A DNA stretch of 64,000 bases from Patescibacteria group bacterium (GTDB lineage: Bacteria; Patescibacteriota; Patescibacteriia; 2-12-FULL-60-25): positions 25,791 to 89,790 of the forward strand of contig JAQTXZ010000002.1 in assembly GCA_028688515.1 (NCBI GenBank), read 5' to 3'. Positions 49,831-62,679 of this stretch are shown piece after piece (the first letter of the stretch is position 1; each line of letters starts with the position of its first letter). A program made the translations under genes and the position numbers. A model generated the notes under the pieces. The model was not told where the DNA came from. It saw only the letters and a list, made by a program, of their open reading frames with translations, and ran no database searches.

Positions 49831-49929
49831 GCCGTGTTCGTAAGCTTCTCCGGTCGATCTCCAAGATCGGCTTTTTTTGTAAAAATAGGAATGAATTTTG
49901 CGTGGATTTGTCGGTTGTTATCTGATTTC

Positions 49930-50065
49930 GTATACCGTCTAGGTATATGTGAAGTCGGCTGAAGTGAAGGCGGTAAAATTGAACTGTGCTCTACCGCCGT
50001 AACGGAAGCCGATTTGGGCGTAGCTGGGCGTTAGCCACAACGCAGGCACATATACCTTGTTGTAC
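49930..50065 (-). repeat. attC-like site A (distal, partly degenerate)
   Basis: Plus strand: ATTTCGTATACC-G-TCTAGGTATATGTG...CACATATACC-TT-GTTGTAC-GATGT. Confidence 0.55.
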
Positions 50066-50087
50066 GATGTTGTTGTGAAAATTTATT

Positions 50088-50792
50088 TCATTTCTTTGCA
50101 ATAATAAGTGCAGTGTTCAAATGCTCATAAGCAACACTAATTTCCGAAAAGCCTGCCTCCTTCAGCCAGTCAATTTGATCCTCAATCGGGGCAAGCAAGT
50201 TCAGAAATTTATGATGATAAGCCCATTCTTTAAGTGATGGTTCGTTGCGAGCATGTTCGACTAGGTGATGAAAATGCTGAGCATCATTAATGGCCGCCTT
50301 GGTTTTAGCTTTGTACGTGACTAAATCACCAAATATGAACACACCGCCAGACTTTAAAGAGCCGTAGATTTTTCTGAACAATTTTTTCTTACCTTCGTCT
50401 TTCTGATGATGGATACCAATAACAGATATAACCATATCGAAGTCGTCATCCAGGTTAATTTCAGCATAATCACCTAGGATATATGCGACGTTGTATTTTG
50501 ATAATCGCTTTTTTGCTCCGTCCATCATTTTTTCAGAAAAATCTACAGCCGTTAATGATGCGGTCGGGATAAGTTTCAGTATCTTTTCTGAAGTAAGCCC
50601 GGTTCCAATACCAAGCTCCAATATTCTTTCAACCTTGTTAGAAGCAATATACTCACGGGCGACCTCCTCAAATTTTTTATGCAGCTCATCATGACCTGGT
50701 ATTGAACGGCGAATATCATCGTCATAAATTTCTGACTCATACGAATCATAATTTAGATCGCCCGCAGCAACATTTGTGGTTCGATCATCCAT
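50088..50792 (-). CDS. cassette gene: class I SAM-dependent methyltransferase
   Basis: Motif I ILELGIGTGLTS and post-I AVDFS. Paralogue of 51691..52383 and 40239..40946. Confidence 0.8.
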   Translation of the reverse strand: MDDRTTNVAAGDLNYDSYESEIYDDDIRRSIPGHDELHKKFEEVAREYIASNKVERILELGIGTGLTSEKILKLIPTASLTAVDFSEKMMDGAKKRLSKYNVAYILGDYAEINLDDDFDMVISVIGIHHQKDEGKKKLFRKIYGSLKSGGVFIFGDLVTYKAKTKAAINDAQHFHHLVEHARNEPSLKEWAYHHKFLNLLAPIEDQIDWLKEAGFSEISVAYEHLNTALIIAKK

Positions 50793-50844
50793 ATTGTTAT
50801 TGCAAAGAAATGAATTGATAAGAGTAAATTTTCACAACAATTTC

Positions 50845-50983
50845 GTACAACGTTTCTGAATATCTGAAGTTTGCCAAAATTCCTTTAAAAATCAATTAGT
50901 TTTGGCAAATTTGGGTGAAGATATTTTGCATTCCTTAGCTTTTAATTGTGAAAAATTCCTGAACCGGATATGCCGTGTTATGT
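50845..50983 (-). repeat. attC-like site B
   Basis: ATTTC-GTACAAC-GTTT-CTGAATATCTGAAG...CCGGATATGCC-GT-GTTATGT-GATGT. Confidence 0.65.
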
Positions 50984-51007
50984 GATGTAGCCAGAAATTT
51001 CTATTCC

Positions 51008-51394
51008 TTAATTATTTTTGGTTTCTTTGTTTCTGTATGCATATAAATACAATGCAATAAATAATGGGATAAAAATAACAATATTAATTGTGGCAATAAC
51101 AGGTTGAGACAAGCCGCCCATATCTTTCTCTACTGTCTCTTGAACGACTTGTGACAATGGCAAAATATATTGTTGAAAAATATTCCAAACTATATATCCG
51201 CCAAAGAATATTTTCCAGAACATTAAACTAAACCATCTTTTTTGCCAACAGAATGCAAATAGCCCCACCATGGCTACCAACATAAGAGCAACATCAATAA
51301 CTTCCCAAACTCTTGAGAATCCTTGCCACAAATATGTTGGAATTATAGCAATTAAAAGAAACCAAAAATAAATTTTCCAAAAAGTTTTTTTCAT
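51008..51394 (-). CDS. cassette gene: 4-TM small membrane protein
   Basis: 128 aa with four hydrophobic helices. Confidence 0.6.
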   Translation of the reverse strand: MKKTFWKIYFWFLLIAIIPTYLWQGFSRVWEVIDVALMLVAMVGLFAFCWQKRWFSLMFWKIFFGGYIVWNIFQQYILPLSQVVQETVEKDMGGLSQPVIATINIVIFIPLFIALYLYAYRNKETKNN

Positions 51395-51500
51395 AATGTT
51401 ATTTGGTTAAAAATTAAATATATTTCATTATACACAAGTTATACCGACCACGAAATAAATTACCAAACAAATCTTAAAAAAAGAAATTTTTGGCTATTTC

Positions 51501-51600
51501 ACTTAACGTATCCGAATAAACGAAGTTCGTTTGAAACGCAGTGAGAACGAATTTGCGAAAATGCCGAGCCGAGGCATTTTCCGTTTATTCGGTGTTAGAC
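51501..51600 (-). repeat. attC-like site C
   Basis: ATTTC-ACTTAAC-GTAT-CCGAATAAACG...CGTTTATTCGG-T-GTTAGAC. Confidence 0.75.
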
Positions 51601-51690
51601 GAGGGTTTGTTTCGTCCTCCTATTATATCAATATTCAAAGGCAAAACAAAAGCGCAGCGTCCCCTTGCGTATGCCACAAACATAAATTAT

Positions 51691-52383
51691 TTACTTTTTA
51701 GCAAAGAATACAGCATAATTCATATATTCCCAAGTACTTCTCGAGTCAGAAAAGCCAGCGTCCCTTAGCCATTGCAATTGCTCATTAACCGAACTTGGCA
51801 AGTCCTCCTCTTTGTAATTATCAAACCAATATTGACCTTCTTTTGTCCCGAGATTTTTGATGAGAAAAGCCCTCCACTCTTCCTCTTTTGCAATAGTTTC
51901 TTTTTCTGAATCAAATTTGACAATATCCCCCAATACAAAGATACCACCACTTTTAAGATGATTGAAAATTTTCTTGAACAATTCTTTCTTTTGTTCACCA
52001 GTAAGATGGTGAACGGAGAGTACGGCCACACCAGCGTCGTAATGTTTTTCCTTAAGTTCAAGGTCTTTAATATCTTGCTCGATAAAATGAACATGACTCA
52101 GATTATCCCTTAAGCGAGTTTTGCCCTGTTCAATCATCTTGGGGGATATGTCAAATCCATCAATTACCGCTTGAGGATATTTGTTTAACAAGTGGAGGGC
52201 GGTTTTTCCAGTACCGATACCGAGATCCAATAATACTGGCTTTTCTGACGTTGTATTCACAAGGTCAATTACACTTTGATGCATTTTCTCATAATTTGGA
52301 ATGAGCTTTTTTATTAAAGCATCATAATCATGGTATTTCGCTTCAAAGTGTTCCTTGACTAAACTGCTGTGTTCATTTTCCAT
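51691..52383 (-). CDS. cassette gene: class I SAM-dependent methyltransferase
   Basis: Motif I LLDLGIGTGKTA. Same C-terminal extension ending FFAKK/IIAKK as 50088..50792. Confidence 0.8.
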   Translation of the reverse strand: MENEHSSLVKEHFEAKYHDYDALIKKLIPNYEKMHQSVIDLVNTTSEKPVLLDLGIGTGKTALHLLNKYPQAVIDGFDISPKMIEQGKTRLRDNLSHVHFIEQDIKDLELKEKHYDAGVAVLSVHHLTGEQKKELFKKIFNHLKSGGIFVLGDIVKFDSEKETIAKEEEWRAFLIKNLGTKEGQYWFDNYKEEDLPSSVNEQLQWLRDAGFSDSRSTWEYMNYAVFFAKK

Positions 52384-52414
52384 GAAAATTAATTTAGTTT
52401 TTGTGGCATATTTC

Positions 52415-52491
52415 GCCTAACGTTTCCGAGTATCTGATGTTGCGAAGCAATATGGGTGGAGCGAAGCGGAACCAGATACTCGGTGTTGTAC
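52415..52491 (-). repeat. attC-like site D
   Basis: ATTTC-GCCTAAC-GTTT-CCGAGTATCTG...CAGATACTCGG-T-GTTGTAC-GATGT. Confidence 0.8.
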
Positions 52492-52618
52492 GATGTAGAT
52501 TTTTTATCGTCGTCTTTAGTGGTACTTACGATATTTATTTTAAAAGAAAATTTGATTTTTTGTTTTGAAAAATTAAAGAGGGGTAGGGGGTGAATTTCAT
52601 TTTTCAAAGCTTATTATT

Positions 52619-53545
52619 CTACTTCTCAAGTAAGGGTCTTTGAAGCTCTGGGTTATTTTCGTCGATTTCGGCCATTTTATTTACTGGTATCAAATCAGCT
52701 ATAGATTCTTCACGTTTCCAATTTTGTAAAATATCCCAAATATTTCCTTCGCCAATGTAATCCATAGTTAGCTCACTTCTTTTTGCTTCATATTGCGGAT
52801 AAAGTACACTTTGCGGGTCTTTGATAAATCTTTCAGCAAAATCTTCTGTCCCATTGTAAACATCAGTAATCCATTCGGGTCTCAAGTCTAGTGTGTTTAC
52901 TTCTTTTTCCATTTCAATATTCATAGTTTTGAAGAGAGGATGAACTATTACATCATCGGAAGGTATAGAAAATTCAACAACAGGAAGTCCCTCTTTGTGA
53001 CCAGTGCGTGATTCAGCGGGATTGTGAGGGGGTTGATAAGAAGCTCCGACTGAGACTGAATTAAGTCCTGTCAAGCCCGGAAAATCACCACCGGGACCAA
53101 TATGCAGTTTGAATAATTTAATTCGAGGTATTTTGTGTTGAACAAAATTTCGATAACTATCTAATGAAAAATTGTCTGATAATTCAGCAAAGTCTTTTTC
53201 AAGTTGTGCGTAAATATCCTCTTGTTCAAGAAAACTTCGTAACGCATCTTTAATTCGTTTCGAATTTTTTTGAAAAGATTCTGCCGCATTAGGATTCTCC
53301 AAAACTGCATTTTGGGGATGGTTTAAAATTGCATTCAGTTCTTCATAACTAACCAATCTAAAATATCTGACAGGATTACCTTTGCTATCCTTGTCGGCGG
53401 CGGTTAGTATTTCCCGCTTACGTTCCTCTGGAAATAGATTGCGGGTTAACGATATTCTTTCTTCAATTGATGTGTCGGTAGCAGTAAGGCGAGAAATTAG
53501 AACATTTCGATTAATGTTTTCTGGCGTTGGCATTGCTTCGTTCAT
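52619..53545 (-). CDS. cassette gene: hypothetical protein
   Basis: 308-aa ORF bounded by sites D and E. No motif recognised. Confidence 0.6.
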   Translation of the reverse strand: MNEAMPTPENINRNVLISRLTATDTSIEERISLTRNLFPEERKREILTAADKDSKGNPVRYFRLVSYEELNAILNHPQNAVLENPNAAESFQKNSKRIKDALRSFLEQEDIYAQLEKDFAELSDNFSLDSYRNFVQHKIPRIKLFKLHIGPGGDFPGLTGLNSVSVGASYQPPHNPAESRTGHKEGLPVVEFSIPSDDVIVHPLFKTMNIEMEKEVNTLDLRPEWITDVYNGTEDFAERFIKDPQSVLYPQYEAKRSELTMDYIGEGNIWDILQNWKREESIADLIPVNKMAEIDENNPELQRPLLEK

Positions 53546-53638
53546 AAACCCCTTTATTATATTATTAAAAAAATGAAATTTTCTGTCTTTTTAAAATCAT
53601 TTAAACCCTATTTTACCACGAGATAAAAAATTTATTTC

Positions 53639-54256
53639 GTACAACGTTTCCGAATATCTGAAGTTGCGCCCGTGTTTATTGGTTAAAACTTCAAACATTC
53701 TACTATCTTAATTATATCACTAAACTTTGTTTTATCACAGCGCAATTTGAGTGGAACAGAAAAGAAAATCACAAATATTTTCCTTATTTTAAGCCCTTTT
53801 TTTGAATTTTTTGAAAGTGCTATGGACAAAGACTGAAAAATATGCTATAGTCTAGTGTCCAGTGGATTTCCCGCTGGCATACCTTACAAAGGAGGACATT
53901 ATGAGGATCGCTTTTCTTCTGGTAGCATTGTGGAATACGGTGGTGGCAGCAATTAACGTCAATATATTGCCGTTGTATATGTCACCGGAAGCCATGGTAT
54001 ATGTAACACCGTTATCACAGCTTCTTCCAATCTGTATACCACTCGTAATTGCGGCAGCATTGCCAAGTGGAGGCAATTCAATCACGCTCAACGACCTTCG
54101 CAAATGTTTGTCGTAAGCAATTCACGACTTACCCCCTGGTGGAATCTATTTCTACCAAGGGCTCTTTTTTTCAAAAAATTCAAAAAAAGGGCCATATAAA
54201 TTGTAAAAAATATTTGTGATTTTCTTTTCTGTGTAACCAGATATTCGGTGTTAGAT
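53639..54256 (-). repeat. attC-like site E, interrupted or expanded by a 477-bp IR-flanked module
   Basis: Left half ATTTC-GTACAAC-GTTT-CCGAATATCTG. Right half CAGATATTCGG-T-GTTAGAT-GATGT. The two halves are 590 bp apart. Confidence 0.55.
53901..54116 (+). CDS. small 2-TM hydrophobic protein inside site E (reverse orientation, own promoter and SD)
   Basis: ATG is 6 nt after AAAGGAGGA. TGGACA-17-TATAGT lies upstream (about 53823-53850). MRIAFLLVALWNTVVAAINVNILPLY.... Confidence 0.5.
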   Translation: MRIAFLLVALWNTVVAAINVNILPLYMSPEAMVYVTPLSQLLPICIPLVIAAALPSGGNSITLNDLRKCLS

Positions 54257-54355
54257 GATGTTTTGCCGACTCTGCAAGCTACAAATTACTTTATTGGAAC
54301 AAACTTTTTATCTGCACGAACATTTTTTAGTTTCTATATTACAAGGCGAAATTTC

Positions 54356-54422
54356 ATCTAACGTCATCGCGATATCTGACGTTTTAATGTGGCGAAGCCC
54401 TTGCAGATATCGCGTGTTAGGC
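54356..54422 (-). repeat. attC-like site F
   Basis: ATTTC-ATCTAAC-GTCAT-CGCGATATCTG...CAGATATCGCG-T-GTTAGGC-GATGT. Confidence 0.8.
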
Positions 54423-54439
54423 GATGTAAAGCCCAAAAA

Positions 54440-55309
54440 TTAATTTATAACCGCCATTAATGTTCTTTCTTTGCCAAATTTATTATAATCTTCTTTTGCT
54501 AAGGATAGACTATACGGAACGAAGGCTTGATCAATTAAACTTTCTGTTTTTTGATAAATGGTTTCAAAAAATTTTTTGTGTTGCACCGTGGCTTCAAAAC
54601 CATCCGTGTAAAAAACCACCAAATCTCCCTTGCTTAATCCGATTTCTCCAAAATTCATAAACTTTTCAGCTTCATTTTCACCGGTTAATGCGCCGTAAGA
54701 AACACATTTATTTTCAACGATTTTTTTGGCGTTGTTTCTATATTCAGACCTGATCATCTTGCGGTACTTAGGCATGGCAAAATTGAAATCGGATTTTTGC
54801 AGATTTGATTTTTCATATTCTTCAAACGTCTTCATCCAATTCGGTGTCTGAAATTTAATTTTGCCATTTTTATCATAAACAATAATTCCACAGTCACATA
54901 TTCCAGCCCAGAATAGTTTGCCGTTATAAATAATTCCACCACTGGCAACGCAGCCAAAAAAATCATTTATCAAGTAATCAACTTTTTTAGTATTGTCTTT
55001 GTTCAACTCGGCAATCTTTTTATTTCCAAAAATAAATGCGTTTCTGATTGTTTTTAATGAAGGAATTTTGTTATCTAGAGATTTTACAAACGATTCACAA
55101 AAAATATCAGCTGAAAAACGGGCACCACTTGGATTTGGATAATTTTTCAGAGAATCTTCTATGGACAAGTTTGTAAAATCTTTTGGAGAAATTGGATCTC
55201 GTGTAATTCCATCGGCAACACAAAAAATTTTTCCATCAACCATCATTGAATCTTCCGGAGGCATTAGATGTCCGTATAATAAATTTGGCAAAGATACTTT
55301 ATAAATCAT
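54440..55309 (-). CDS. cassette gene: PP2C/SpoIIE-like phosphatase-fold protein (tentative)
   Basis: FCVADGITRD and VVFYTDGFEA resemble the two Asp-containing PP2C motifs. Confidence 0.4.
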   Translation of the reverse strand: MIYKVSLPNLLYGHLMPPEDSMMVDGKIFCVADGITRDPISPKDFTNLSIEDSLKNYPNPSGARFSADIFCESFVKSLDNKIPSLKTIRNAFIFGNKKIAELNKDNTKKVDYLINDFFGCVASGGIIYNGKLFWAGICDCGIIVYDKNGKIKFQTPNWMKTFEEYEKSNLQKSDFNFAMPKYRKMIRSEYRNNAKKIVENKCVSYGALTGENEAEKFMNFGEIGLSKGDLVVFYTDGFEATVQHKKFFETIYQKTESLIDQAFVPYSLSLAKEDYNKFGKERTLMAVIN

Positions 55310-55333
55310 AAATTAATTTTTGGGCTTTATTTC

Positions 55334-55451
55334 GTCTAACGTTCCGGGCTATGCGAAGACCGCCTCAAGCGGTTTTGGGTGAGCGTCCTAATTCGCTTTA
55401 GCTACCTAAATACTAGCAAAACCGTCGCGAACCGCATAGCCCGAGTTAGCT
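55334..55451 (-). repeat. attC-like site G
   Basis: ATTTC-GTCTAAC-GTTC-CGGGCTATGCG...CGCATAGCCCG-A-GTTAGCT-GAAGT. Confidence 0.75.
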
Positions 55452-55673
55452 GAAGTATTCCTTTTCTTTTTTCCTTGATTTTACTGTTAAAATTTTTAAA
55501 TTTCTTTTTCTTTTCTGTGTGGAGGGCAAGAGGGGAAATAAAGGGGTGAATTGCCCGGAGCTACTAAAAAACTTTACTACATATAAAAAGGAAGGGGTTT
55601 AGGTTGGGGGTGGGGTGGGGTGGGGTGCTTTTTATTTAGGTTTGATTCCTAAAATTTTAATGTAAACTTACAG

Positions 55674-57929
55674 TTACTTATCAAATGTAACTATACCCTG
55701 TGCCTTGTTGTAAATATCAATTTTATTATCTATATCTACACGATTTACCAACCAACCAAGTAATTCGCATTGATGCACAAAATCATTAATTCTATTAACA
55801 CCATTAATCTCTTTTAATGTCACAACCAAACCAAAATTAATATCATTACTGCGCCTACTCAATCTTTCTTTTGATTTAACGCTGAGTCCCCACATGCCTT
55901 TATCGTAAACATCGCGTGCAAGAACTCTATCTGTAAAAATTTCATTTATATGTTTAGTGTTGTCCCATTTTCGGTAAAATTTCCTGGCGTTACCTTCGTA
56001 TATATAATGTTTTTCACCGTCATTATTATTTTGACAATTCTTGTTTATAGACTTGATGCCCTTGCCTTTGATTCTACCAAAATATATATCTAGCTCCGTG
56101 TTTGTGTAATCAACTCCTTGATTAATAGAGCAACTGGGGAAATAACATAAGGTAGCTTTAGCAACAAAAGGGTGTTTATTGTTATTTATTGGAACAGGTA
56201 AATTATAAGCATATGTATCCCATTTTTTAGAGATACCACTAATAATAAACTTTATTTCATCATTATCCGCTTTTATAATGTTTTCTATATTTTTAGGTAC
56301 TACACCATGACCCACAAAGGGTGCTAATTTAGTATTATTACCAATGCTATTCCACCCAGCAGCAGCATCTATAATTAGTGCTTTTGCGACTTCTCGGTTA
56401 AGCCCAAGGACTTCTATTAAATAAGCAATTTTTCGTGTTACCCATGGAGCTGCGTATGAAGTACCACTACATAAGCCTTCGCCAGTTGGCGTGCACACCC
56501 TAAGATAATCGCCTTTATCACCGCCATAACTGCTAACGTCTGGTTTATTAAAAAATGATAAAACTAACCCCTTTCTTGAATAGGTTGCTGGAGACCCCTT
56601 ACTATTTACCGAATTTACAACTATAGCGTTAATTGAATCGGCGGGTGAGCCAATCATTTTTTCCACTCTACTTTCATCGTCGCGTTTATTAGTACCTGCT
56701 ATTACAAAAATAACATTATTTTCGTATTGAATTTCGTCTAATATAGCAGCTTCTGGTGATATAAAATTGGGATTAATTTCTCTATCGGATCCCAAAGATA
56801 GATTCCATACTGTTATATCGGGATTTGAAGTAACTATCTCTCTTATGGCCTTCATAATAGAAAAAGCACTATACTGTCCTTGTGCGGCTACGCCAAAATG
56901 CCTAACTTTAAATCTACCACACCCATCATCTAGCTCTGGGTGAATAGTTGGCCCATCAACAATAATTGAACTTACCGATGTTCCGTGAACATAATCTTTG
57001 GATTCCGTAGGTATCTCCTCATTGATCATTTTTCTAAAATCCACCCATTCAGAAAAATATACTGATTTATCAAATAAAGTATCTATTACCCCTACAATAG
57101 GTTCGTCTTTTGGTGGGTCTATTGTTTTTATAGTCGCATCGCTGCTTGCGTCATCAACAACCTCCTCAAAACTTAGTTTAGATATATCTTCTGTCGACAT
57201 TGCAATAAGATAAGGAGCCTTGTCTGACAAGAGTTTAATTTCGTCTGGATATAAAAGTAAGGTGGTTTCACTTAGTATTTTATCAGGCTGAATATTTATA
57301 CCGATCCCTTTCATCAATTCAGTTAAATCGACATTTGTTTTATATACTGTAATTATCGATCTATTGTTTGTATTCGCGCTATTATTAGGAACCTTAAAAC
57401 CTTCTATATAATGTGAATCTACAATTATATTTCTAAAATTTGTTTTTGTGACCCCATATTTTTCATACTTAATATTTTTATCATTTAAACCACTAATCAA
57501 ATCGTGGGTTATCTTTCCGTTAAATATTTCATCTAATAGCTTTATACAGCCTTCTAATTTTTTAATTGTATCCTGAATTACTTTTTCGCTAACATGATGC
57601 GTAATCACATGTTTTCTTGTCACTTCATTAGCAAATCTCGCACCAACAACAGAATCATTTACAGAGCCACTATTTGATAATAGCCCACTTATCCTATTGC
57701 TCTTAGCGATGACGTCGATATAACAAACATCAACTAGGCAACCTTTGATAATACTTTGTCTAGTCCAATAATCAGCTAAGGCATTAAGCTGACTAACAAA
57801 AGACTTTAGTTTATCAGAATCTATAGATGGGGAATTTTTAGGAATGTTACGAGAGCTTGGCCGGATATCATGCGAGCGTTCCTGAAGAGTTCCTTTTAAT
57901 TGAAGTATGTTATTCATAATTTTAGACAT
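55674..57929 (-). CDS. S8 (subtilase) serine peptidase with ~290-aa unknown N-terminal domain (IetS-like)
   Basis: Catalytic contexts VGVIDT (D), HGTSVSSII (H), WNLSLG (N) and GTSYAAPWV (S). Confidence 0.85.
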   Translation of the reverse strand: MSKIMNNILQLKGTLQERSHDIRPSSRNIPKNSPSIDSDKLKSFVSQLNALADYWTRQSIIKGCLVDVCYIDVIAKSNRISGLLSNSGSVNDSVVGARFANEVTRKHVITHHVSEKVIQDTIKKLEGCIKLLDEIFNGKITHDLISGLNDKNIKYEKYGVTKTNFRNIIVDSHYIEGFKVPNNSANTNNRSIITVYKTNVDLTELMKGIGINIQPDKILSETTLLLYPDEIKLLSDKAPYLIAMSTEDISKLSFEEVVDDASSDATIKTIDPPKDEPIVGVIDTLFDKSVYFSEWVDFRKMINEEIPTESKDYVHGTSVSSIIVDGPTIHPELDDGCGRFKVRHFGVAAQGQYSAFSIMKAIREIVTSNPDITVWNLSLGSDREINPNFISPEAAILDEIQYENNVIFVIAGTNKRDDESRVEKMIGSPADSINAIVVNSVNSKGSPATYSRKGLVLSFFNKPDVSSYGGDKGDYLRVCTPTGEGLCSGTSYAAPWVTRKIAYLIEVLGLNREVAKALIIDAAAGWNSIGNNTKLAPFVGHGVVPKNIENIIKADNDEIKFIISGISKKWDTYAYNLPVPINNNKHPFVAKATLCYFPSCSINQGVDYTNTELDIYFGRIKGKGIKSINKNCQNNNDGEKHYIYEGNARKFYRKWDNTKHINEIFTDRVLARDVYDKGMWGLSVKSKERLSRRSNDINFGLVVTLKEINGVNRINDFVHQCELLGWLVNRVDIDNKIDIYNKAQGIVTFDK

Positions 57930-58968
57930 TTAGTTCTCTCGAAACTTGGCTTTTAGAAACTCCTGTTAATATTTCTATTTCTCTAACCGTAAAACCGCTG
58001 TGTTGTAATTTTTTTAAATCTATCTTGTTGTCTTTAGTCCGTATAGATTCATATAATTTTTTTAAGTAATCGTATTCATTATTTGGATCACTAAACGCTA
58101 GTGCGGTTTTAATTATATTTTTTAAATCACCGGGATAAGGAATATGATCTAATGTTAAAAATATTTTTTTAAATAGCCTCATATTGCGACTAGCGAATTT
58201 AAATTTTGTTAAAAACTCATTTAACATTGATTCTGCGACTTCAATCAATTCTTCTTTGTTATATCTATTAAAATTTATAGTTGAATCAAATCTTCTAAGT
58301 AACGCCTTATCGAATTGCCCAAAAAGATTAGTGGTGGCTATAAGTACGATTTCATCACTTAATCCATCCAACCCTTTTAAAACAGAAGATGTTACTCGAC
58401 CCATTTCTCGTAAATCATTAGAATTAATTCTATCTAGAGCTATTGCGTCTATCTCGTCAAACAAAATAATCACTTTTTCTGGGTGAGGTAATCTACTTAA
58501 CTCTGTAAAAACGGAAGCAATGTTTTTGGACGTTTGGCCAAGCTTGCTATCAATAACACTATCAAAATCTATCGCATATAAATCACGTTCAAGAATACGA
58601 GCAATCTGTTTTGCGGTTTCAGTTTTACCTGTTCCAGGATCACCCTCAAATAAGAACTTACTAACTCCAATTTTATGTCCAATTGAATTTATAATGCCCA
58701 CTATATCGTTTTTTATAAGAGTGGGGAGGGGGAAGGAGTTACTACTATCTAAGTTCACTCTCATAAAAAATGGAAGGCTGTATTCGTTGTCCTGTGGTAC
58801 AAAAGTATTAGCACCAGACAGCAAAGCCATAATATATTGAGCCAATTCAGAATCTCCAGTAGAATCGAAGTACCTAGCTATATCATAAGCTTCATTTTTA
58901 AAACCCGCCTCATTTTTTTCCGCATGGTATTTAATTAAATTTAAAATATTTTTTTTGCGCATATACAT
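57922..58968 (-). CDS. AAA+ ATPase with C-terminal HTH (IetA-like)
   Basis: Walker A GDPGTGKTETA, Walker B ILFDEIDAI, ATTN sensor-1. C-terminal FTVREIEILTGVSKSQVSRELN. 8-nt overlap with the S8 gene. Confidence 0.88.
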   Translation of the reverse strand: MYMRKKNILNLIKYHAEKNEAGFKNEAYDIARYFDSTGDSELAQYIMALLSGANTFVPQDNEYSLPFFMRVNLDSSNSFPLPTLIKNDIVGIINSIGHKIGVSKFLFEGDPGTGKTETAKQIARILERDLYAIDFDSVIDSKLGQTSKNIASVFTELSRLPHPEKVIILFDEIDAIALDRINSNDLREMGRVTSSVLKGLDGLSDEIVLIATTNLFGQFDKALLRRFDSTINFNRYNKEELIEVAESMLNEFLTKFKFASRNMRLFKKIFLTLDHIPYPGDLKNIIKTALAFSDPNNEYDYLKKLYESIRTKDNKIDLKKLQHSGFTVREIEILTGVSKSQVSRELNV

Positions 58969-59231
58969 TTTTTTAATGAAATGAATTTATGTTATCCATA
59001 CTTTATATTAACATATTTGGGACACCAGTACAACAAAATGGGACACAATAATAAAAAATTGCGATTTCATTGATGTTTTGCCTTTCATATATTTAATCCT
59101 ATTAATGCAAAAAACGCCTTAACTAGGCGTTTTCCGTTGCTGTCTTTAGCTTAAACAATATATGAAATTTCACTTTTTCCATTAGAACCACATTTTTTGT
59201 GCATTTTCCATGCTGGTTTTGATTTATTTAG

Positions 59232-60395
59232 TTACCGATTTCCCTTTGCCCTATTATGCGTCTTACACAACATCTGACAGTTTTTTGTTGCAGTTTTACC
59301 GCCTTTGCTCCAAGCGGCAACATGATCTGCATCCATATCACTCAAGCTCCAAATTTTATCTATGTTTGCATCGTGGCCTATTGCACAATGTGGGCAGTTT
59401 GAAACACCTTTTTCCTTTGCAGTAGCGGTTTGAACTTCGTAAACTGACCGCTTAGTCGGGTCATCAAATACACGCACCTCCAGTAATTTTTTATCAACCT
59501 CACCACCTAAAACATATTCGAAAATCCCTCGTCGATTCTTTACGTAAGCATCACCGTACAGCTTCTGTACTGAAGCGGACACTTTAGCCGGGTCGTATTT
59601 TTTCTTGTGGTAAGTTTTGTAAAGCCTGTTCCACTCAAGACCTTTCATTTCGCTTTCAACGTCTGTGAACGTGGTTGAAACCCAGTCGATAACAGTATTA
59701 AAATGCTTTTTTAATTCGGTTATATTTTTATCATTACGGTGCATGCTCATATAATTGTCGATCGCACCATCAGAAACCCAATCCAAAGCACGCTCCAAAT
59801 ATGCTTGGCGCTTAATGTCACCAGCAATGTACGTGCTCCACTTCTGTACGTTTGCGTTTTGGCTATTACTAAACTCTTCGCGCGCCTTGGTAACAAAAGG
59901 CCCTGAATAAACAGCGTTCAAGATTTCTTGCTCTGTCAGTGGCACACCAGCGATATTGATAGTTTTAAACCAATCCTTAATTTCAGGTTCGTCACCTTCA
60001 CATACATACACTAGTAATTTAGTGTCCATTATTTGCTCACGCTGACTACTAGCCATGCCACTGAAATACTGTTCATGGCCATTTTTATCTTTGACAGCAA
60101 ACTTACCTGCCACAAACCGACCAATACTTGTGATGCGTTGCTGTCCGTCGAGCACTTCAAATATATCAGTACCTGCTTGGTTAAAATAAATTAAACCTAT
60201 CGGATAACCTTTCAAAATTGAATCGATCACCGCAACGTCTCTTTTACCATCGGCATAAATGTAATTACGTTGGTACTCTGGCTGAATAGTTAACTTGCCT
60301 GACAAGCCAAACAAGCCTTTTCCTTCCAGTTCGTTATAAACAAAACCGTCGCAAATTTCTTTTATAGTGATGTCTTTTTTTAGGGTTGTTTTCAT
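59232..60395 (-). CDS. DUF262 (ParB/GmrSD N-terminal-like) + HNH nuclease fusion
   Basis: [12 protein letters not shown] motif. C-terminal CPHC...DADHV...[18 protein letters not shown]/zinc-hook. Confidence 0.8.
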
Positions 60396-60397
60396 AA

Positions 60398-61552
60398 CTA
60401 TTTTTGCAGTTGTTTAACTAATAATCGCGGAAATGTTTGACGATAAAGTTTTTCATTTACAATGTAATAAGTTTTGTTTTTAAGTGGTTCACTAATTTTT
60501 AAAACTGCACCATCATTTAATTTAGTTACCTTACTTTTTTCATTATTTTCTCCGACCTGTATTTGTTCAGGATAGGTTTTGGTAGCAGCACCGAACCAGG
60601 TTTTAGTTAAACCCAGAATTTCAAATTGATCAGGATTGTACTTATCTAGAAACGAAACAGGAACCCCCATAACACCATTGTAATTGCTAGGGATAGCGTC
60701 GACAAAAGGAACTTCAATTGCGTTAAAATTATCATATTTTTCGTACGCTTGTTTTCCTTGCAGTTTTTTGTTGAATTTTTTGTTATCACTCATAGACATC
60801 AGACTCATGGGTTGATGGCGACGACCGTGATCAAGATTAGTGAACCAACCCACGTTTCCAAACGACTGAGTTGAGCCATCGGGTTTATTAAATACTTTGA
60901 CTTTACTATATCCAAACCATATTTTATTGTCCTTAACCAACGGAAAGATTTCTTTTAGAGTAATAGAGTTTTGATTACCTATAATAAGAAAATTCCTTTT
61001 ATATTCTACTAGCTGTGCCACGTACTCACGAAATAAACTAAATGGTGGATTAGTCACCACAATATCACTTTTCTTAAGAAGTTCTATACATTCGTCACTA
61101 CGAAAATCACCGTCGCCGTCAAGAGGAGTCCATTCGTTATTTTTATTCGCTCGAAGTTGTTGTGCAATATCTTCTAGTGTAAAGGACCCGTCGCCGTCTA
61201 TATCGCCAACTTCGTTGATAATAAATTTGTTAGCAGTGATTTTAGGTCTCCCCTTTGATTTGGTAAGAGTTTTGTCATCGCCAAATAATCCCAGTTGTGT
61301 ATTGGCTACGGGTGAGGGTTTGTAACTCGTTGAAATAAGTTTTTTTAGGCCCAAACGATCAAAGTTTAATACAAAATAACGAAAGAAATTGCTTTCGTAT
61401 GGGTCGTCGCAGTTGCTGTAAATTACCTTATTTTTAAAAGTATTTGGGTTATACTCAAGATAAGATTCAATTTCTTTCTGAATATCTGAAAATTGCGTAT
61501 AGAATTCATCATTTTTTGCTTTTTTTGCTTTTGTGAGGTTTTTGTTTGCCAT
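60398..61552 (-). CDS. N6-adenine DNA methyltransferase, EcoRI-methylase-like family
   Basis: NDEFYTQ N-terminal motif and TNPPFS (NPPF) catalytic motif. ATG at 61552 (the TTG at 61573 is an alternative). The stop is 2 nt from the DUF262-HNH start. Confidence 0.8.
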
Positions 61553-61863
61553 ACATTCAATATATTCCTCCAATTACATTAATAAATCAAGATATTAATA
61601 TAAAATTAGATTTTCGTAGAAACTCCTTATAACCCCCTCTAAAATTAAATCCCAACATTATGAAAAGAAAAAGAAATTTGAAAATTTTACTAAATGGCTT
61701 TGTTCGTAGCTAAGAAAAAAGAAAAGGAATATTTCAGCTAACTCTTTTTTATACGAAAACACTTCGTATAGCTATCCACATCTTGCCACTTAGGCGAAAA
61801 AATGTATAGAATGGATTAGGTGTGAAGAGTTGACGGCCTCACTAATTATTAAAGTGAGGTTTT

Positions 61864-62679
61864 ATGTTAGATGAACAATTGAAGCGGACGTCGGACGAGA
61901 TGGTTTTGCGTAATTACAGTCAAAAAACGGTTAAGGCGTATGTTGGTTGTATTGAGGATTATCTAAGTCAGAATCAAGCGGACTTATATTGGTGTGATAT
62001 CGAGGCGATCCGTCAATTTTTGCTGGAGAAGCAGTCAAGAGGGTTGGCGCCGCAGACTATCAATCTATATCTAAACGCCATAAAGTTTTATTATCGTGAT
62101 GTTTTGCATTTAGGCGACACGATCAATCTAAAATTCGCTAAACGCTCGAAGAAGCTACCGGTTGTTCTGTCGAAAAGCGAAGTTTTACGAATCATTGACG
62201 CTGTCAGCAATCCAAAACATAAAGCGATGATCGCTTTGGCATACGGTGCCGGCCTTCGTGTTAGCGAGGTCGTTAAATTGCGGATCGGGGACTTGAATTT
62301 GGAGGAGTTGACCATCCATCTCAAGCAAGCAAAGGGAAACAAAGATCGGATTACCATCTTGTCTGCATCTATAGTAAATGATTTAAGACGGTTGATGACT
62401 GGAAGGTTGGTCGGCGATTTTGTGTTTGCCAGTGAACGCGGAGGGAGATTGACGGAGAGGACGGCGCAAAAGATTTTTGAACATGCCCTTAAAGCCGCCC
62501 GAATCGGTCGGGGAGCGACATTTCATTCGTTGAGGCACAGCTTCGCGACTCATCTTTTGGAAAATGGAGTTGATGTCAGGTACGTTCAGGAACTTCTTGG
62601 TCACCAGAATATTCGGACTACGCAGATTTATACGCACATAACCAATCCGGCGATGCGGCGGATTGTAAGTCCGCTATGA
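61864..62679 (+). CDS. tyrosine recombinase, IntI-like but without the IntI-specific insertion
   Basis: N-terminal SAM-like YSQKTVKAYVGCIEDYL. Catalytic contexts AGLRVSE (R), HSLRHSFATH (H-x-x-R) and LLGHQNIRTTQIYTH (H...Y). C-terminal ...RRIVSPL resembles IntI1 ...GVRSPL. Confidence 0.9.
   Translation: MLDEQLKRTSDEMVLRNYSQKTVKAYVGCIEDYLSQNQADLYWCDIEAIRQFLLEKQSRGLAPQTINLYLNAIKFYYRDVLHLGDTINLKFAKRSKKLPVVLSKSEVLRIIDAVSNPKHKAMIALAYGAGLRVSEVVKLRIGDLNLEELTIHLKQAKGNKDRITILSASIVNDLRRLMTGRLVGDFVFASERGGRLTERTAQKIFEHALKAARIGRGATFHSLRHSFATHLLENGVDVRYVQELLGHQNIRTTQIYTHITNPAMRRIVSPL

Follow-up and report, generated by a model that had tools for sequence, protein, structure and literature searches.

Related systems and the locus

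The described systems closest to the locus reported here are integrons, the integrative mobile elements exploiting Xer (IMEX) of the CTX-phage type, the single-recombinase systems XerS/difSL, XerH/difH and archaeal XerA/dif, and the pdif modules of Acinetobacter plasmids. The locus lies in a 64-kb stretch of one Patescibacteria (candidate phyla radiation, CPR) genome. This whole stretch is called the window below, and L-numbers (L001 and so on) denote the related loci with which it was compared. It consists of an 11.8-kb array block (49925-61742) of ten minus-strand genes and one small plus-strand gene, interspersed with hairpin sites and adjoining a divergent tyrosine recombinase gene. We conclude, with a probability of roughly 0.72, that it is an integron-like gene-capture platform made of Xer/dif-type parts and run by a Xer-type recombinase that lacks the I2 helix, the insertion specific to integron integrases (IntI).

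The locus shares with integrons a divergent tyrosine recombinase adjoining an insertion site (attI-like), and a unidirectional array of mostly single-gene cassettes without evident promoters, defence genes included. It also shares imperfect hairpin sites with ..AAC and GTT.. boxes, where crossover takes place at AA/C (G/TT on the other strand) in integrons and would do so here, a preference for the non-coding strand in folding, and a foreign base composition of the array. It differs from integrons in its recombinase, which has no IntI-specific insertion and carries a lysine at the W157 position, and in its hairpins, whose inner (L) stems are without extrahelical bases, a 3-nt central bulge and a T·T mismatch being found here. 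Moreover, pairing across a gene reaches 25-100 bp, the loop of a hairpin may itself hold genes in addition to those between sites, a gene does not take its inner hairpin with it, and attI is a clean dif-like palindrome.

As for IMEX of the CTX-phage type, the substrate of a Xer-type enzyme without I2 helix would be a hairpin imitating an arm-centre-arm site, irregular in its centre, and tandem arrays would arise from successive insertions at one site. Here, however, the units are cassettes of one to four genes and not phages, an array can comprise up to 10 or more of them, the site apparently lies off the terminus, and the recombinase gene is physically linked to it. XerS/difSL, XerH/difH and XerA/dif likewise employ one recombinase, the closest structures to ours being XerA 4a8e and 5hxy, and in xerS/difSL an inverted-repeat core site stands immediately beside the gene (PMC5357621); nevertheless, no cassette arrays or hairpin partner sites have been described for these systems. 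The pdif modules are gene modules bounded by inversely oriented Xer-type sites, with two kinds of arm alternating, as in our array. Their 28-bp XerC/XerD sites have equal 6-bp spacers. Ours have spacers of 9 and 6 bp when read as a duplex and stems with hairpin-type covariation, in chromosomal arrays tied to a recombinase gene and to an attI-like site. No description of arrays of this kind in Patescibacteria was found in the literature searched.

Boxes of neighbouring sites are complementary across the genes

Seven hairpin sites and one half site at the junction with the recombinase spacer were located, all within a few bases of where the initial annotation had placed them. Their extents, counted from outer 5-mer to outer 5-mer, are as follows.

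61731-61742, plus strand: junction, left half alone, ATTTCAGCTAAC; abuts the spacer leading to the recombinase gene
55329-55456, plus strand: site G, ATTTC-GTCTAAC-GTTC-CGGGCTATGCG...CGCATAGCCCG-A-GTTAGCT-GAAGT
54351-54427, plus strand: site F, left box ATCTAAC, arms CGCGATATCTG/CAGATATCGCG, right box GTTAGGC
53634-54261, plus strand: site E, arms CCGAATATCTG/CAGATATTCGG, 570-nt loop, folding z = -10.8
52410-52496, plus strand: site D, left box GCCTAAC, arms CCGAGTATCTG/CAGATACTCGG, right box GTTGTAC
51496-51605, plus strand: site C, left box ACTTAAC, arms CCGAATAAACG/CGTTTATTCGG, right box GTTAGAC followed by GAGGG
50840-50988, plus strand: site B, left box GTACAAC, imperfect arms, right box GTTATGT; weak fold, z = -1.2
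49925-50070, plus strand: site A, terminal, degenerate left box GTATACC, arms TAGGTATATGTG/CACATATACCT, right box GTTGTAC

On the plus strand, the shared layout is ATTTC-NNNYAAC, 4-5 nt, a 10-12-nt arm and a loop, then the complementary arm, 1-2 nt and GTTRNNN-GATGT. Boxes and the stems they form are called R below, inner arms and their stems L. The inner arms are perfect complements of 10-12 bp in sites C to G, good in A and imperfect in B. Four of the seven boxes in the window fit GTTRRRY. The motif ATTTCNNNYAACGT is present in 6 copies in the window, all of them in the array and on the plus strand (0.12 in shuffled sequences), and GTTRNNNGATGT in 6 copies, 5 of them in the array (1.08 in shuffled sequences). 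The array had been described as more AT-rich than its flanks, and it is: GC content is 0.31-0.39 in the block against 0.46-0.53 in the flanks, and climbs leftward of site A.

The central claim of the initial annotation was that boxes of neighbouring sites are complementary. We found that the right box of each site is indeed the reverse complement of the left box of the next site on the recombinase side, across the intervening gene, exactly in 4 of the 7 pairs and with one mismatch in the other 3. Only 8 of the 5040 possible permutations of partners did as well, and a box compared with its own site matched at only 1-2 of the 4 variable positions. In 5 of the 7 pairs the cross-gene complementarity runs on for 10-21 nt past the 12-nt box, a feature that had been missed, and its total extended length was reached by only 2 of the 5040 permutations. 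One example is the 6.4-kb cassette 1, where 55445-55474 matches the reverse complement of 61713-61742 at 29 of 30 positions, and where direct reading of the sequence traces the inverted repeat over ~100 nt with indels; around the PP2C gene of the next cassette, 54416-54448 and 55308-55340 form a 33-nt cross-gene inverted repeat.

The same rule holds in other genomes, allowing Watson-Crick or G·T pairs: 4/4 pairs in L001 (exact, junction included), 3/3 in L007 and 9/9 in L092, where at least 9 sites are packed into 8 kb and the chain is exact throughout. Extensions of at least 9 nt were found in 14 of 24 gene-bearing segments of the related arrays, while mismatched controls averaged 0.7 nt. We conclude that the chain rule is statistically real, and stronger than first reported. 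It follows, as in integrons, from the 3′ part of each terminal box belonging to the next cassette.

In the outer box of site A (49925-49941), ACC stands in place of AAC. To judge from the letters, this one change would disable the last crossover point and so fix the distal end of the array.

Covariation and folding of the sites

Covariation was analysed in a set of 18 sites from 11 genomes. AAC and GTT were invariant in 18/18 sites. In the L stem 98.5% of cells were paired, a value that is partly circular because the sites had been chosen on arm complementarity; the sequence diversity of the arms is not circular, and 9 of the 11 pairs showed compensatory double changes. Variable positions of the R boxes paired in 86% of cells with the cross-gene partner, against 65% with the partner of the same site. 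Two positions are conserved as G·T wobbles, one in 16/18 sites and the other in 17/18; a T·T mismatch is kept in 13/18, and the three nucleotides between R and L stems are always unpaired on one side, forming a 3-nt central bulge. No conserved bulge or extrahelical base was found in the L stems of this set.

The wobbles would become A·C mismatches on the opposite strand. When excised junctions were reconstructed, they folded as near-continuous rods, and the plus strand was the more stable in 5 of 6 cases. It is the non-coding strand of the cassettes, and corresponds in polarity to the 'bottom' strand that recombines in integron attC. Wobbles, T·T mismatch and 3-nt bulge all appear to favour folding of the non-coding strand. 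Read as a duplex, the right half-site is 11-6-11 and the left one 11-9-11, the spacers differing by a conserved 3 nt.

Other regularities were noticed in the sites. Many loops open with AAGTT or ATGTT, continue with a short private hairpin and AWTTGGGTGRAG, and end with GAAC before the returning arm (window 50866-50925, 52436-52465 and 55355-55385; L001 2292-2335 and 8859-8900). Inner arms are alike within some arrays, reading GCGTGTNTRC in 4/4 sites of L010 (1338-9083) and C[CT]GA[AG]TATCTG in sites B, D and E of the window. That they are alike within an array, and differ beside the same gene across genomes, hints at concerted evolution or independent exchange of hairpins.

Two cassettes are found in different contexts

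The same cassettes were looked for in other contexts among related genomes, as the initial annotation had proposed, and were found in two cases. The cassette carrying a 230-aa S-adenosylmethionine (SAM) methyltransferase, MT230, is fifth in the window and first at attI in L010 (Uhrbacteria), with 80% nucleotide and 81% amino-acid identity, the recombinases of the two loci being 59% identical. Homology stops right after GCCTAAC, and is followed by a hairpin site in the window and by attI in L010. The second case is the PP2C-like cassette; a database search showed many Patescibacteria to have homologues at 75-93% identity. The cassette has different neighbours in each of the window, L183, L184 and L185/L186: in L183 it lies between different cassettes and has perfect GCCTAAC/GTTAGGC boxes, in L184 it belongs to another array, and in L185/L186 it is first at attI, beside a 299-aa recombinase 41% identical. 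In every case the leader of the cassette (..GGGCTTTATTTCGCCTAAC) is kept, and ..AAC marks the limit of similarity.

At their far end, the two shared cassettes lose similarity where the R box meets the inner arm, and the inner hairpin is unrelated from genome to genome. The conserved unit is therefore box-gene-box, and not gene plus attC. An attC-type organisation had been assigned to the sites; its AAC/GTT boxes and the core boundary stand, whereas an inner hairpin moving with the gene does not. An all-against-all comparison of ~30 arrays at the protein level gave only the two methyltransferases in common, the second being that of cassette 7, 63% identical to a gene in the L010 array. The cupin gene in a loop of L001 had no nucleotide match to the cupin gene beside PP2C in L181.

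PP2C homologues 71-81% identical were also seen among housekeeping genes, with no hairpin sites nearby (L179, L181, L182). The one in L179 (9960-10000) keeps a relic of the cassette leader and box (..TTTATTGCGCCTAAC), which could reflect insertion at a secondary site or a chromosomal source of the cassette.

Distribution of the arrays

Scans of species-representative genomes and metagenomes yielded ~45 Patescibacteria loci. Hairpin sites were present in nearly all of the ~20 that had at least 2.5 kb of upstream sequence, always upstream of the recombinase and in a single orientation. In ~50 non-CPR loci, taken around homologues of 31-44% identity from Bacteroidota, Bacilli, Acidobacteriota and other groups, there were none. 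The closest comparison is with L001, whose recombinase is 84% identical to that of the window: the right flank is the same, and the genes to the left are wholly different, with the same kind of sites between them. In the window, L001, L006, L007 and L016, the GC content of the array is 10-17 points lower than that of its host flank; such a deficit in hosts of differing GC content suggests a shared cassette pool. Genes were also found inside the loops of L hairpins, a cupin gene in L001, many in L016, L027 and L092, and the small gene of site E in the window; like the genes between sites, they are bounded by private inverted repeats.

A dif-like core site and a Xer-type recombinase

The features on the recombinase side of the junction are the following.

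61731-61759, plus strand: attI-like core site, an 11-7-11 inverted repeat
61763-61812, plus strand: accessory elements, with an inverted copy TTCGTATA at 61763-70 and a half-site-like repeat TTAGGCGAAA at 61790-99
61864-62679, plus strand: 271-aa tyrosine recombinase, Xer/XerA-like ('Cand' group; Pfam Phage_integrase, NCBIfam, PDB alignments)

In the window, the core site is composed of the R arm ATTTCAGCTAA (61731-61741), the centre CTCTTTT (61742-61748) and the L arm TTATACGAAAA (61749-61759). Its consensus over 23 related loci is ATTTCATATAA-CTCGTTT-TTATACGAAAT, again 11-7-11, with arms complementary at 10 of 11 positions, and in Patescibacteria homologues it is situated 105-130 nt upstream of the start codon of the recombinase. 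By its sequence the core site is dif-like. The boundary between cassette and backbone falls after 61741/61742 (..AA/C): to the right of AAC the sequence is conserved among the window, L001 and L006, unlike that on the left. The motif TATNCGAAG is common to the inner arms of hairpin sites and the inner arm of the core site. Both the ATACGAA-N5-TTCGTAT palindrome reported in the spacer (61751-61769) and the distance of 121 nt from junction to recombinase start were verified. The repeat TTAGGCGAAA is contained in a promoter-like TTGCCA-18-TAGAAT (61783-61812) directed at the recombinase gene, and a second TTATRCGAA copy is found ~45-60 nt nearer the gene in most related loci.

The recombinase matches Pfam Phage_integrase (PF00589, 2.9e-45) and has a SAM-like N-terminal domain. 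Its best NCBIfam model is XerA_Arch (215.9 bits, cut-off 220). The two IntI models scored under their cut-offs, TIGR02249 with 206.7 bits against 265, in a match split in two stretches, and NF011946 with 127.6 bits against 435. Alignment with the archaeal XerA structures 4a8e and 5hxy, the closest solved relatives, is end-to-end and essentially continuous. Against VchIntIA/IntI4 (2a3v), residues 11-175 align to 11-178 and 195-271 to 241-317, and ~43 aa are therefore missing where VchIntIA carries the IntI-specific insertion (I2 helix region). W157 and W219 of this region reportedly hold the extrahelical bases of attC, as described by MacDonald et al. in 2006; the residue aligned with W157 is a lysine in our recombinase. 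The catalytic residues R132, K157/K160, H221, R224, H247 and Y256 are all present when aligned to XerA, XerD and IntI4, and the C-terminus is ...SPL, as in IntI. Judged by the absence of the IntI insertion and by the scores, the recombinase is of the Xer type and not an integron integrase. Its homologues number thousands, of ~270 aa and 60-65% identity, nearly all in Patescibacteria, and a published classification describes the 'Cand' group as Xer-related recombinases of candidate phyla (PMC8138268). It is the one tyrosine recombinase of the 64-kb window.

In the window (62676-62679), L001 (10813-10816) and L006, the stop codon of the recombinase gene and the start codon of a competence gene of the ComEC family overlap (ATGA), which suggests co-translation in this lineage. 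A coupling of the recombinase to single-strand DNA uptake through comEC as a general feature was considered and dropped, since other members of the family lack the synteny. Archaeal bins also contain close homologues of the recombinase, with 63% identity in an Altiarchaeales record (P0107) and 34-38% in Woesearchaeota and Pacearchaeota contigs; this could be due to cross-domain spread or to mis-binning, and no hairpin sites were detected in the archaeal-bin loci L030 and L045. All that a search of plasmids gave were relatives of 36-40% identity, annotated as 'tyrosine recombinase/integron integrase', which was uninformative; a search of viral contigs with the recombinase protein gave one partial match.

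Proposed mechanism and alternative explanations

Chain rule, recurrence in other genomes and two shared cassettes support the essence of the initial annotation, an integron-like array of chained sites with crossover in the GTT/AAC core beside a divergent recombinase. We propose that new modules would be inserted at the ..AA/C edge of the outer (R) arm of the core site, which therefore would make the array grow away from the recombinase, with genes reading outward. Each module ends in inverted copies of the R arm and a private inverted repeat of 10-100 nt, and between modules stand second hairpins, whose L-arm stems share the TATNCGAA motif with the core site's inner arm. When single-stranded, gene modules and L hairpins may each fold back on themselves; since R- and L-flanked segments alternate, the single-stranded array would then be a string of R-type and L-type hairpins. 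Adjoining R and L stems would rebuild a duplex-like arm-centre-arm site, best on the non-coding strand, and wobbles, T·T mismatch and bulge might play the role in strand choice that extrahelical bases and the I2 helix play in integrons. The far end of the module could be dealt with in the manner of integrons and CTX phage, by exchange of a single strand and subsequent replication, or by a two-site cassette swap in which the L hairpins stay resident. We infer from sequence comparison that the recombinase would catalyse the exchange, that folded single strands would be its substrate, and that the module would be exchanged at its far end; entry of each unit as a circle is plausible.

Several observations weigh against this proposal. 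The inner hairpin beside a shared gene differs between genomes, which a simple integron-type circle model does not predict, and shared cassettes are only two among ~40 arrays. No circles, empty sites or strain-level array polymorphism were seen, L001-L005 sharing one array. Loops and gene modules of 0.4-6 kb would need long-distance folding, and the right half-site has a classical 11-6-11 duplex geometry, compatible with duplex recombination. Finally, the I2 helix, absent here, is held to be necessary for single-strand recombination of attC (PMC7790495).

An explanation that departs from ours only in the primary role given to enzyme and site is that the recombinase is the housekeeping dimer resolvase, the single Xer of Patescibacteria, and the core site the true chromosomal dif, with cassettes that are IMEX-like, tandem at dif, and use a folded dif mimic as CTX phage does. 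We regard it as unlikely, although a good deal speaks for it: the family is very conserved and abundant in the phylum and belongs to the Xer-related 'Cand' group, no other tyrosine recombinase is found in the window, and the 11-7-11 core site has dif-like arms (the difH arm being AGTTATGAAAA) and lies beside the recombinase gene, which parallels the xerS/difSL module (PMC5357621). Yet the outer arm of the site varies, being supplied by the latest cassette to enter, and GC skew does not switch at the site, with +0.045 in the left flank, +0.077 in the right flank and +0.075 in the homologous right flank of L001. As the sign is the same on both flanks, the site is probably not at the replication terminus, by a test that is weak, the right flank covering 2-10 kb only. 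Gene orientation was tried as a second indicator of the terminus and was uninformative, the orientations being mixed.

Duplex recombination between alternately inverted Xer-type sites, of the kind proposed for the pdif modules of Acinetobacter plasmids, with two crossovers per swap, one at either flanking site, would reduce the hairpin appearance to a by-product. It accounts for the alternation of R-arm-flanked and L-arm-flanked segments, both able to carry genes, for the conservation of the R-flanked segment between genomes while the L hairpin is host-specific, and for the geometry of the right half-site. We nevertheless hold it to be quite improbable: as a duplex the half-sites have spacings of 9 and 6, a conserved 3-nt difference, a single folded strand is the only setting in which the conserved G·T wobbles and T·T mismatch are understandable, L arms and private R-arm extensions covary strictly, which duplex sites do not require, and all genes are in one orientation, so that no inversions are seen. 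The palindromes might also be dispersed repeats, of the repetitive extragenic palindromic (REP) or bacterial interspersed mosaic element (BIME) kind, or intergenic terminators, in an ordinary fixed gene order. Hairpins do lie between convergent gene ends, and site B folds weakly. However, neither the remaining 52 kb of the window nor the 10-kb downstream flanks of related loci contain the motifs, the polarity of the sites is fixed with respect to the recombinase, boxes obey the chain rule across genes, there are no terminator-like T tracts, and cassette content is wholly different between genomes with 84% identical recombinases, despite a syntenic right flank. On these sequence grounds this last explanation appears effectively refuted.

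The preferred reading, an integron-like platform of Xer/dif-type parts, can be extended to a phylum-wide natural 'I2-less integron', in which a Xer-type recombinase and a dif-like site would shuffle modules through folded single-stranded site mimics; we put this broader proposal at about even odds. Acquisition of the I2 helix is held to have turned a Xer-like duplex recombinase into a folded-single-strand enzyme (PMC7790495). Widespread integron-type arrays of chained hairpin sites, accompanied by a recombinase without I2, make the question of integron origin directly testable, and offer a simpler enzyme for study. If the proposal is true, single-strand cassette recombination needs no IntI innovation, the system being either the ancestral state behind integrons or an independent reinvention. 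It could also explain many attC arrays without IntI in archaea and uncultivated lineages; attC arrays are known in 75 archaeal genomes, with IntI in only six (PMC9668308). Surveys of integrons that make the IntI-specific domain a requirement would overlook the platforms of a whole phylum. Little is known of mobile elements in Patescibacteria, and it is probable that the array is a main route of gene acquisition in these ultra-small bacteria, including restriction-modification (R-M) and Iet anti-phage systems.

Cassette content and associated elements

Seven cassettes were delimited, numbered from the recombinase side.

55340-61741, minus strand: cassette 1, 6.4 kb, R-M pair and IetA/IetS (Pfam, NCBIfam, PADLOC)
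60398-61573, minus strand: EcoRI-like methylase (cassette 1, type II R-M)
59232-60395, minus strand: GmrSD_N and HNH nuclease (cassette 1, type II R-M)
57922-58968, minus strand: IetA AAA ATPase (cassette 1)
55674-57929, minus strand: IetS S8 peptidase (cassette 1)
54362-55339, minus strand: cassette 2, PP2C-like protein at 54440-55309
53645-54361, no strand assigned: cassette 3, no gene between the boxes, cargo inside the loop of site E
52421-53644, minus strand: cassette 4, 308-aa protein at 52619-53545, no family match (Pfam, NCBIfam)
51507-52420, minus strand: cassette 5, SAM methyltransferase of 230 aa (MT230) at 51691-52383
50851-51506, minus strand: cassette 6, 128-aa membrane protein at 51008-51394
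49941-50850, minus strand: cassette 7, SAM methyltransferase of 234 aa at 50088-50792

In combining defence with accessory genes, the content of the array resembles that of sedentary chromosomal integrons (10.1101/2024.07.02.601686). No match was obtained with Rfam (E-value mode) over 49-62 kb, and no tRNA gene lies near the array.

The loop of site E contains a second long inverted repeat (53756-53830 / 54150-54232), of ~75 nt, which frames a plus-strand gene for a small hydrophobic peptide. It starts at GTG 53862 or ATG 53901, after AAAGGAGG, and ends at 54116, and promoter-like and terminator-like sequences were recognised by eye. The peptide had no family match in PADLOC. As the sole gene of reversed orientation in the array, it brings to mind the toxin-antitoxin cassettes that chromosomal integrons carry in reverse.

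A G-rich element, GAGGGG..GGGGTGAAT, was noticed just 3′ of cassette genes, at 52570-52600 and 55520-55625 in the window and at 2455-2480 in L001, and a run GGTTGGGGGTGGGGTGGGGTGGGGTG at 55590-55625. In the window alone neither GGGGTGAAT (2 copies, 0.55 expected) nor the TTGGGTGRAG motif is significant.

Sites of the same type were also seen on contigs classed as viral (IMG/VR), in L176 (12127-13699) and L170 (1063-2632), and further in L167, L169, L172, L173 and L175, with at least 5 closely spaced sites in L169 and L172. The platform may be carried by phages or other mobile elements as well. In both L176 and L170, two chained sites and an attI-like TGTATAAC-TATTATA-TATACG are placed directly upstream of a 266-aa recombinase, 34% identical to that of the window and surrounded by many small phage-like genes. 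The cassette open reading frames of these two loci are oriented towards the recombinase.

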